A stretch of 63,926 bases of DNA, filler included, from Olpidium bornovanus S191 (taxonomy: Eukaryota; Fungi; Olpidiomycota): assembly GCA_017911155.1 (NCBI GenBank). It is 28 parts of 28 records of this genome, joined end to end, with 100 filler letters (N's around TTAATTAATTAA, not from the genome) between each part and the next. Parts side by side here need not be neighbours in the genome. Positions count along the whole stretch, not along the records: positions 1,765 to 6,089 come from JAEFCI010007289.1; 27 more parts are not named here. One strand, given 5' to 3'. The translations under genes were made by a program, and so were the position numbers. The notes under the pieces were generated by a model that saw only the letters and a program-made list of their open reading frames with translations, had not been told where the DNA came from and ran no database searches. Below, piece after piece: positions 1,765-4,483 of the stretch (position 1 is its first letter; every line of letters starts with the position of its first letter).

Positions 1765-1814
1765 CCGTGGACCAGACAAAACAGGGGCTTGTGGAGAGTG
1801 TTTGACTCGTTGCG

Positions 1815-2585
1815 ACAGGATGTTGTATCCCGTCACGACGTCCGGGTCCAGCTCCGCTATCAGGTCGAAGAACGCCTTGATCATGCCCAGCTCGTTCGAG
1901 TACGGCATAAACGTGGTGCCACTCACGGTCACGTCTGGCGATCTCACGCACATGCAAATGTTTGTCGTGACGCCCTTTTCTTTGTGCACGTCGCAGATCA
2001 TGTACACTTCCGCCGAGGACCTGTAAGGGTCGGGGAACGCGGACTTCTCGTGGCTCTTGCACTCGATATCGAAACACATCACGGAAGGTTCCGGGATCGT
2101 GTCGTCTTCCAGGGCCGTCGCGGAATTGACGACAAACTCCTTCCCTTTGCTCGAGATCTTAAACACAGGTTCCGACAGTTCGAACTCCGTCCACGTTCCG
2201 AGTTTCAATCCTGAGCGCTCGAGATACTTGTCCCTGGGGGGATGCTGGATTCGTAAACGACGAACCTGTTCTTCACCTTCGCGCACATCTCCAGGAGCCT
2301 CTCCTCGCTGCGGTGCCGGACCTCAAAACACTGCTTCTCCGCGAGACCTCTCATGGTTCTCATGTAGACGGGTCCGGAGACGCTGGCCCCACCGAAAGCT
2401 TCCTTCACGGCAGGGGTGCGCGCGACCCGGTTCACCGGATATCCGCCGACGGGAGAAATGATCACGAAAGGAACAAACCTCGGGTCCCTGAGGACGACCC
2501 TCTCCCCCTCTTCCGAAACGCACATCAGGAGGCCCCCCCCGAATGCCGACCGCGTCCACCTGTCCGTTGTGGCATTCCCTGGTTC
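1815..2585 (-). pseudogene. polB: Virus-type family B DNA polymerase fragment (N-terminal domain plus 3'-5' exonuclease motifs I and II), frameshifted and truncated
   Basis: The end of ORF 2205..3476 reads LLMCVSEEGERVVLRDPRFVPFVII...VYESSIPP, matching the PolB N-terminal pattern lFg.teeG.sV...F.PYf and YEs.I. After a frameshift in a poly-C run near 2235 it continues RDKYLERSGLKLGTW...MCFDIECKSHEKSAFPDP (Exo I) and SNELGMIKAFFDLIAELDPDVVTGYNIL (Exo II). Similarity stops right after GYNIL. Intronless and compact, unlike a fungal Pol delta/alpha/epsilon. Confidence 0.85.
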
Positions 2586-4351
2586 AATGGTGGCTCGCAA
2601 ATTAGGCGCGCAAATGTTTCCAAACACTTCCTGCAAGCCACTTTTGCTTGCGGCCTGACGGCTGCTTTCCGGGAGGCGAATCTCGGCCGCGCAACCGCAA
2701 ACGCCGAGGGCTTCGAGAGACAGCAGCATCCCGTGCCAGGCGTCGAATGGGGACTTCATCTGTGGGAGGCCGCTATGCGGGATTCGGTTGTAAAGGTAGG
2801 TTGCAGCCACCAGGGCTTCACCCCAAAACGTGTCTGGGGCAGCGTGTTGCAGGAGAAGGGTGCGCATCCGCTCGCCAAGAGTACGATGCAAGCGCTCAGC
2901 CATCTCGTTCTGGTGAAGCGAGTCGTGAACCGTGACCGTGTGGCAATTGCCGCGCGAGGCGAGGTAGTCAAGCCAGACTGCAGTAGGGTACTCGCTGCGC
3001 CGTCCGATTGCAGACAGCGAATCTGCATGTTGCCGTCGCGTTCGACACGCGCAGTGAATTCCCAAATGCATTGGATTTGCGTAAAGACGAAAAGCGTGAA
3101 CGTAGCGCGTTGCGTCGTCGAGGAAGGTTATCGCGTACCGTGCTCCACTAAGCGACGGCGTGGGCAGTGTCATCAGGTTGGAATGTATCTTTTCTAACAG
3201 CACCATGGCGGAATCGCCATCCCGCGTGCGGGAAACGTGGCTCCGGCCATCTTCGCGCGCGGGCAGACGTCGCAACCGAAAGTGCAAAAGCGTGTTCGAA
3301 GAGGTCGAAATATTTCCGGACTCGCAAAGCTTCTTCACGATGGCTTGGCCGACGTGCCCGAGTCTTGCATGACGCACGTTGGCGTCGACGGTGAGTAATA
3401 CTGTTCCGGAGCACGCGTTGGGAACCTTGTTCGTCCAGGCTCCCTGCTGCCGCCGGACTGTGAGGAGGTCGTACAAATGGTTCGCGCGGCAGGCCCCAAA
3501 CGCAAGGTCGTTTTCCCGCGCAGGCTCAGGGCACAGCTGCCATCTCCGCGAAAAGCAATGCTGTGAGACGGCCGACGGACAAGAGTTTTGCGGTTATTCC
3601 TGGCATGACGTAGATGTCATCCACATTTGTGTGCATGCCCGTGGTGAAGTAGATTTTTGCGCGGTGTCGTCTTTCCGCAGACTCGAAGTCGGGTCGAGGC
3701 AAGGGTAGCCGGCTTCGGTACCGCAGAGGGCACGGGACAAGCGAGGGATCGTTTGGACGCATCACTTCATTCACCCGCGACCGATTGGCTCGACGGGGCC
3801 AACCCAATGAGGTCGAGACCGTGATTGATAAGCCGAGCCACCACGGCGGCGAGCAATCCTACGGGCTGGTCCCCTCGCGGCGGCCGACACTGCCGGTGGA
3901 GTGACCGAAGGATAGAGAATTGAAGACGTTTGGGCCCGACGGCCGTCGATGCGCGCGGCGCACTGATTTTATTTCGTTTTGAAAACAGAGCGGGGACTTC
4001 GGAACGTGGACTTTTTCGGGTTCGCGCGTGTGGCTCCTATACACGGCCGGCGGGCGAAAATCGAAACCGAAAACAAATGTTTGTGTGTGTGCGGGGGCGG
4101 TCCTTCGGTCTACTGCGCGGACTGTTTTCCTTCCGCTCTTTCATCTCTTCAGCCGCCGCATTTCCCTCTATCCATCGATGGTGACCGCGCGCGGCGCGTC
4201 GATCCTCGCGCACGCGAAGGCCGTTTCATCTCCGACAGCAATTCGTTTAGAGAACGGCGTCGTTTCCGACTCGGATCTTCTTACGCGCGCTAGTGATGCT
4301 GCCCGTCAAGAGGTTGTCAGCGTGTCGTAATGAAATTCCTCTGATTCCCGT

Positions 4352-4364
4352 TGGGCTCATAACA
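4352..4364 (-). promoter_or_regulatory. Primer-binding site of the Copia GGTTATGAGCCC type (internal initiator tRNA-Met fragment primer)
   Basis: TGTTATGAGCCCA directly after the LTR-terminal CA. It differs by one base from the GGTTATGRGCCC site known from Copia-type elements primed by a cleaved tRNAiMet. Confidence 0.65.
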
Positions 4365-4483
4365 TGTCATGAGAAGCGCACGAGGAGTGTGTATTTCATC
4401 GGAGTGTGGGAGCGGTGCGTCGATAGGCAGTCGGGCGTCGGGGATCACGTGACTTCTATCGCTTCGCTACATAACACATAACA
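4365..4483 (-). repeat. Putative 5' LTR (~112-119 bp) of the Copia element
   Basis: On the minus strand it begins TGTTATG and ends CATGACA (6/7 inverted match, TG...CA), directly followed by a PBS-like sequence. The 5' end is ambiguous between 4476 and 4483. Confidence 0.65.

Follow-up and report, generated by a model that had tools for sequence, protein, structure and literature searches.

A 4.3-kb contig of the fungus Olpidium bornovanus S191 (JAEFCI010007289.1, assembly GCA_017911155.1) carries a broken piece of a family B DNA polymerase (PolB) gene behind a broken Ty1/copia-type retrotransposon, and the locus is likely to consist of dead repeats patched together by chance, not to be a hybrid element. 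The polymerase piece is probably a dead fragment of giant-virus type, likely left by a virus on the Pithovirus side and likely joined to the dead Copia by later deletion or recombination. The contig occupies positions 1765-6089 of the stretch analysed here (the window, 63,926 nucleotides (nt)), which consists of 28 short contigs with N spacers between them. All parts of the patchwork lie on the minus strand, where the order is frameshifted Copia, a 78-nt repeat piece, 766 nt of PolB (2578-1813) and 48 unrelated bases. A preliminary description had read the same strand as long terminal repeat (LTR), primer-binding site (PBS), gag remnant, protease, pre-integrase, integrase and PolB, with the integrase passing near 2590, without a stop, into polymerase N-terminal and exonuclease domains that took the place of the reverse transcriptase. 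Most of that order holds: protease, pre-integrase, integrase and PolB are present together with LTR-like and PBS-like stretches, while gag was not detected (0 of 21 stretches) and the LTR-like stretch is single.

The polymerase piece comprises two domains. Its exonuclease domain (1813-2232) matches DNA_pol_B_exo1 (PF03104) at E 2e-18 and runs through Exo II, past a frameshift, to a cut at 1813; the N-terminal domain (2244-2578, with 2578-2535 and 2531-2244 in different frames) is placed by homology and by other copies of the gene, and an hhalign match (probability 92%, E 6.5e-7) extends the first homology piece to about 2250. Exo I (FDIEC, 2073-2059) and Exo II (GYNI, 1830-1819) were found as first described, both in frame 2. 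In a HMMER search of 1.84 billion representatives the fragment drew 197 matches, of which the best was P0001 (839 amino acids (aa), 43% identity, E 4e-30, 121 bits) and the next P0002 (828 aa, E 5e-15). A word-indexed search with the 138-aa exonuclease piece found nothing among 178 candidates. A profile of the P0001 and P0002 matches recovered four further proteins of compact size (P0159, P0160, P0161 and P0004, 752-826 aa). The atlas clusters nearest to P0001 are mostly Nucleocytoviricota, and a W-x-S-[SA]-A-Y motif past Exo II is present in 12 of 12 aligned relatives. This motif after Exo II is typical of Pimascovirales.

Phylogenetic placement agrees with these matches. With FastTree, on 200 and on 230 rows, the fragment falls in an 8-row set at 1.0, and in a 52-row tree (IQ-TREE quick search, LG+G4) three nested sets enclose it, with 4 rows (100), 7 rows (100) and 14 rows (99). 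The clade of the fragment is sister to a group that includes Pithovirus LCPAC001, with a Shimodaira-Hasegawa-like approximate likelihood-ratio test (SH-aLRT) value of 96 in IQ-TREE and 0.97 in FastTree, and both sister groups belong to a group of 31 rows anchored by sequences of iridovirus and marseillevirus type (SH-aLRT 100, 757 columns). One anchor is named (P0221); the other two were typed by their neighbours, namely capsid and VLTF3 genes of nucleocytoplasmic large DNA virus type for L149 and L1R/F9L and RNA polymerase for L158. P0005, a long branch, was left out of the later trees. Starred branches set the fragment apart from the marine giant-virus rows (row labels are our own). A tree on the columns of the fragment only (222 columns, 29 rows, several long branches, no mixture model) returned 4-row and 6-row sets at 99/98 and 100/98. 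By its sequence, the polymerase is thus allied, within Nucleocytoviricota, to the side of iridoviruses, marseilleviruses and pithoviruses. One viral contig (L150:7188-9512) carries a PolB of the Pithovirus side and, immediately upstream of this PolB, a chitin-synthase-like gene.

A divergent or decayed polymerase of the host (Pol delta, zeta or alpha) would explain why, in a separate PDB search, the best named match was human Pol delta (E 3e-6, 31 bits, with 15 bits for Pol zeta). Chains that we take to be asfarvirus polymerase scored 23 bits there. Set against this are the 43% identity to the compact clade and the approximately unbiased test, which rejects a grouping with Pol delta at p-AU 1.5e-90 (Pol delta represented by six rows, half of them from fungi) and one with herpesviruses at p-AU 9.6e-7. 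A host origin is therefore refuted for Pol delta and hardly credible for the other host enzymes, and the earlier view of a large-DNA-virus-type rather than host replicative polymerase, for which a grouping with fungal Pol delta had been named as the contrary outcome, is borne out. The comparisons show a fragment that, on sequence grounds, belongs to a compact environmental PolB clade of 750-840 aa and not to host Pol delta.

How the two halves meet was read from the contig and from Logan contigs of 4 out of 24 public runs: X1, X2 and X3, which come from one study, and X4, which comes from a second. What is said here of run-contig pieces, loose ends and differences applies to those listed, beyond which lie 86 pieces, 24 loose ends and 14 differences. 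Other PolB copies in the run contigs match the window up to 2578 and then carry different letters, and the PolB sequence therefore starts at 2578. On visual inspection, 2578-2535 is similar in frame 2, but not in the integrase frame, to the Cys-bearing beginning of the related proteins, and a G run near 2534 differs by a single base in other copies. With the PolB start in frame 2, the join is out of frame. The stop-free frame on which a chimeric protein had been proposed (3593-2208) carries the PolB N-terminal piece behind the integrase and is then closed by a stop at 2207-2205, ahead of Exo I and Exo II; homology to P0001 is split over two frames (2531-2430 and 2232-1813). Neither the uninterrupted switch into the exonuclease nor the chimeric frame survives, given the stop, the different frame of Exo I and II, the PolB start in frame 2 and the 78-nt piece in between. 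The open run across the join is a coincidence and unremarkable: over the 42 codons from integrase to PolB the chance of such an in-frame run is about 0.13 (0.4 for no stop, times 1/3 for frame), and the window holds 19 stop-free frames of at least 300 aa.

The join itself is real and not an assembly chimera. Single contigs of X1, X2 and X3 span 2549-3023 or 2549-3096 with 0 differences, including the interval 2560-2620 around the proposed switch, and the boundary at 2656/2657 is crossed by run contigs with more than 100 letters on each side. For X4, no bridging piece occurs among those listed. Contigs identical to the window also cover 2265-2464 and 1826-2021 at depths of 10-12 (X1), 12-14 (X2) and 14-18 (X3), a similarity of depth that hints weakly at one continuous version. 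In runs X1-X3 three minus-strand GT...AG stretches are left out, which means that these runs contain RNA, independent of the DNA of the window. One skip (3138-3023, seen in X1 and X3 as a joint 3022-3139) is a cryptic intron of 116 nt that sits inside the integrase, shifts the frame on translation when removed and is spliced from some transcripts only; a splice at this place shows minus-strand transcription of the patchwork. An amplification or assembly chimera would be in keeping with the fragmentary assembly and its contig ends, since 14 of 56 ends have CATG within 8 bases (0.74 expected). Together with many long runs of G, C, A or T, these ends suggest a restriction-cut or amplified library. 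However, identical contigs cross the join in three of four runs with spliced joints, hence from other molecules, and no CATG lies between 2361 and 3026. A chimera is thus largely refuted and very improbable.

Integrase and PolB do not touch, as 2656-2579 is a separate piece. This 78-nt filler is mostly a piece of a repeat: its part 2656-2598 is common to contigs with other flanks in four of four runs, and loose ends with differing flanks occur at 2598, 2614, 2615, 2623, 2650 and 2656. Pieces that leave the filler with different flanks on both sides identify it as a dispersed repeat. A reading of the filler as a hairpin or a miniature inverted-repeat transposable element was discarded, as 70 and 57 of 200 shuffles fold equally well (z -0.36 and -0.45).

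The Copia half follows the Ty1/copia order of protease, pre-integrase and integrase behind an LTR-like and PBS-like 5′ end, with weak Pfam scores that fall short of the curated cut-offs; it differs from a Ty1/copia element in that its 3′ half is absent, its gag is not detectable and its integrase is frameshifted. The LTR-like stretch (4365-4483, TG...CA, about 120 nt) has no second copy in the window by blastn, and it is not a proven LTR because it occurs only once. The adjoining PBS-like 12-mer (4353-4364), a sole match in the window, resembles a type of PBS found in certain Copia elements, which is complementary to an internal part of tRNA-iMet. The PBS types given in the accessible part of PMC5445492 do not include that of the 12-mer. 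No homology was detectable in the leader and expected gag region (3664-4352), and no gag family matched any of 21 open stretches scanned at E up to 5. The protease remnant (beta-barrel, 3562-3663) shows a DIYV...LLSV motif and a faint Pol_BBD match (E 0.29), and the frameshifted gag-pre-integrase with its HHCC zinc finger (3263-3482) matches gag_pre-integrs (PF13976) at E 3.6e-4, under the curated cut-off. For the frameshifted integrase core and C-terminal part (2657-3262), the C-terminal half aligns by tblastn with a second Copia of the window (31% over 101 aa, E 7e-8, 2957-2655). The motifs change frame repeatedly (HARLGH 0, CDVC 1, IHSN and TFLDD 0, SDGA 1, EMAER 0), so the open frame of 462 codons is no reading frame of an integrase but a patchwork in which the integrase itself is frameshifted. 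With frameshifts in both integrase and PolB, the earlier remark that both parts are decayed stands. That second Copia (56497-57925, plus strand; gag_pre-integrs, rve and SH3) is unrelated and decayed, and it too ends in the SH3 region, where short tandem repeats take over; a Retrotrans_gag remnant of Gypsy type (E 2e-6) lies at 53803-54462 on the plus strand.

The integrase is cut at the start of its SH3 region, which is upstream of the expected start of reverse transcriptase. A meaningful replacement of reverse transcriptase by PolB is not supported, and reverse transcriptase and RNase H are not present past the integrase up to the contig end, where filler and PolB stand instead. By blastn, the 48 nt beyond PolB (1765-1812) match neither the LTR-like stretch nor the rest of the window. 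These features bear on the possibility that a Copia element acquired a viral PolB fragment as cargo through a switch of template in the course of reverse transcription. The shared strand, the transcription of the patchwork, a break inside the pol region of the retroelement and the existence of several PolB copies would all suit such a capture, and retrotransposon help in spreading fossils of this kind is proposed in the accessible part of PMC7017919. Yet the 48 nt past PolB hold no Copia sequence or LTR, the partners are separated by a third repeat piece, at 2578 the other PolB copies run into non-Copia sequence and only one version of the integrase occurs among the listed pieces. Capture, which the preliminary description had offered as one origin, is unsupported, as neither a second LTR nor another copy of this join was seen, and we consider it improbable; the test is limited because the contig ends 48 nt past PolB. 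Recombination between neighbouring dead elements, its other suggestion, fits best with a junction that is out of frame, a third piece and the lack of a 3′ LTR.

The PolB copies themselves look like dead DNA with different breakpoints. PolB is present in several versions, visible as bubbles (20 differences over 196 nt in one, 12 over 200 nt in another), and the copies differ by one-base indels at 2031, 2240, 2470 and 2534. The integrase-region contigs have 0 differences in X1-X3, that is, a single version. Of 40 listed differences in PolB, 34 were classed, 11 of them silent where 9.5 are expected without selection (P 0.35); one of the others lies at the frameshift and five lie in the G run. Silent changes near the neutral expectation indicate that the copies, taken together, diverged as dead DNA. 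Transitions at CpG number 6 and 3 of 23 and CpG is not depleted, and no signal of repeat-induced point mutation or methylation is claimed. Loose ends of PolB copies lie at 2578, 2401, 2000, 1874 and 1813. No other copy with the integrase-filler-PolB join was found among the listed loose ends, and the other copies break elsewhere. At 1813 two runs continue for at least 255 letters, which translate to residues of the relatives past Exo II. The end at 1874 overlaps that at 1813, an overlap that, judged by 30-letter ends, would fit cryptic splicing of a second GT...AG stretch in a different copy. One constrained copy may exist among the dead ones.

Within the window, no further viral marker was found by Pfam among 147 long frames, and capsid, A32, VLTF3 and RNA polymerase hallmark genes in particular are absent from them; the matches are eukaryotic housekeeping genes and the two other retroelement pieces. 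An Rfam scan gave a single chance-level match (E 0.85). Such a background bears on a second alternative, in which a Copia inserted in the same orientation into an endogenous viral region and a deletion then took the beginning of PolB along with the 3′ half of the element, leaving the filler as a remnant. The anatomy would be the same, and Basidiobolus PolB fossils are flanked by Copia domains according to the accessible part of the supplement of PMC7017919. An insertion of this kind is difficult to reconcile with the spliced gene upstream of Copia, which has no viral match, and with the lack of other viral markers in those frames. We give it little credence as a separate account; it is a special case of later deletion or recombination between a PolB piece and a truncated Copia, and here it is indistinguishable from it.

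Several points weigh against an origin of the locus in a Pithovirus-side fragment joined to Copia by later rearrangement. The bridge over 2578/2579 has 30 PolB-side letters where the rule is 31, all three bridging runs are from one study, and the contig ends 48 nt past PolB with the downstream region unseen. On the columns of the fragment, the wider Pimascovirales-like group reaches only 93/94 and is not starred, and the trees hold no Pol alpha, zeta or epsilon, asfarviruses, poxviruses or labelled mirusviruses. The viral nature of the compact clade rests on tree and atlas because contig context was not obtained: scans of viral contigs, metagenome contigs and prokaryote genomes found no contig inside the clade, three of these scans having reached 8, 24 and 10 of 64 parts. 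Finally, third-position GC content is high in PolB (0.78-0.79, against 0.68-0.90 in four host genes), which is weak evidence of host adaptation because the integrase C-terminus shares it (0.70).

A later deletion or recombination between dead pieces would imply a sequence of events of the following kind. A virus would have infected the fungal lineage and integrated, after which its PolB gene would have been duplicated; the copies seen in part in the run contigs, now about 5-10% apart with different breakpoints and frameshifts, would be the outcome. Rearrangement may then have placed the 5′ half of a Copia, the 78-nt repeat piece and one PolB piece together, with a deletion or non-homologous recombination setting PolB behind the truncated Copia. 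The patchwork is transcribed on the minus strand and cryptically spliced, as the run contigs record; its promoter could be the LTR, or transcription could read through from the spliced gene upstream. Its transcripts would yield no functional protein, be it integrase, polymerase or a fusion of the two.

Fossils of this general kind have been described in other fungi, and the sources are used here as far as their accessible text goes. Gong, Zhang and Han (2020; PMC7017919) reported 87 such sequences in 15 fungal genomes, and they described frameshifts, retrotransposon sequence close to some copies and, in 14 species, a lineage related to Pithovirus; the supplement gives 26 Neocallimastix fragments and Basidiobolus PolB amid Copia domains. 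The fundsalphavirus fossils resemble the present locus in being decayed, multi-copy PolB of Nucleocytoviricota type next to Pithovirus in non-ascomycete fungi, in having retrotransposon domains beside some copies (including Copia around the Basidiobolus PolB) and in size, as their longest listed spans (such as 1945-4329, 801-3227 and 180347-182671) measure 2.3-2.4 kb, which equals the 750-840 aa of the clade. They are unlike it in that D5, SNF2 helicase, SAM methyltransferase and RNA polymerase subunits are absent from contig 1765-6089, and a direct integrase join and a spliced read-through transcript are not mentioned for them in the accessible text. No fundsalphavirus sequence was present among 120 of 227 profile matches listed. 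On balance, the locus is somewhat more apt to be a fundsalphavirus than not, a likening made by description and by the Pithovirus-side tree position.

Other systems are more distant, again to judge from partial sources. Zhao et al. (2023; PMC10640383) described 15-33 PolB copies per genome in Rhizophagus irregularis, with no marker gene nearby. These PolB-only regions share the multi-copy state and the lack of other marker genes but are Asfarviridae-related, whereas the fragment here falls on the Pithovirus side, in trees without an asfarvirus row. Myers et al. (2026; PMC13533422) reported Mycodnaviridae integrated in zoosporic fungi and at least 5 fungal giant-virus PolB clades; giant-virus sequence is integrated in fungi in both cases, but theirs are near-whole genomes near Imitervirales and Algavirales, and ours is one broken gene elsewhere in a tree that has no Mycodnaviridae row. 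Teratorn (PMC10175614) also joins a transposon to large DNA virus sequence; it is a composite element of 180 kb, but the two partners here are short and dead, and nothing suggests that they moved together. No account of a Copia integrase joined to a viral PolB was found in the literature searched.

The gene upstream of Copia (4860-5927, minus strand) has introns at 5137-5331 and 5928-6056, with joints in four of four and three of four runs. Its spliced frame of 246 aa contains two Cys-rich knuckles, CWCCGKSH...C and C..C....H....C, the second of which is complete only after splicing; a similar IP...KR.EIL helix comes after each. This frame has no Pfam match under E 0.07 and no atlas match. Elsewhere in the window, 6190-6630 is a GC-rich tandem repeat of 20-21 nt, and a tRNA-Pro call inside it (6301-6390) is likely spurious. 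A single-chain ATP citrate lyase at 46432-48990 (minus strand) reads open over 853 codons as far as the end of its contig. The best 14 of its 50 matches are fungi or an aphelid, none of them ascomycete, at 57-63%; the search covered proteins of at least 1204 residues, so no two-chain forms. The highest, at 62-63%, are from Glomeromycota, Zoopagomycota, a basidiomycete and chytrids. By genus, the fungi among the best 14 belong to Glomeromycota, Zoopagomycota, Basidiomycota, Chytridiomycota, Blastocladiomycota and Monoblepharidomycota, with one aphelid beside them. Provided that the contigs derive from a single genome, these matches point to a host outside the ascomycetes, likely in an early-diverging lineage.

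The locus adds a fungal host record for the compact (750-840 aa) clade of giant-virus-type polymerases, and it shows that such fossils have been multiplied and broken at differing places and that the host transcribes and splices them; no new hybrid element is shown. Multi-copy fungal fossils made up of PolB only stand without a tested explanation in the accessible parts of PMC10640383 and PMC7017919. It is conceivable, if rather unlikely, that the compact PolB family belongs to an undescribed Pithovirus-side lineage of which at least one transcribed copy extends past both breakpoints, as a whole endogenous virus or a capsid-less self-copying DNA element. If true, Olpidium bornovanus would be the first host for a clade known from environmental proteins only.

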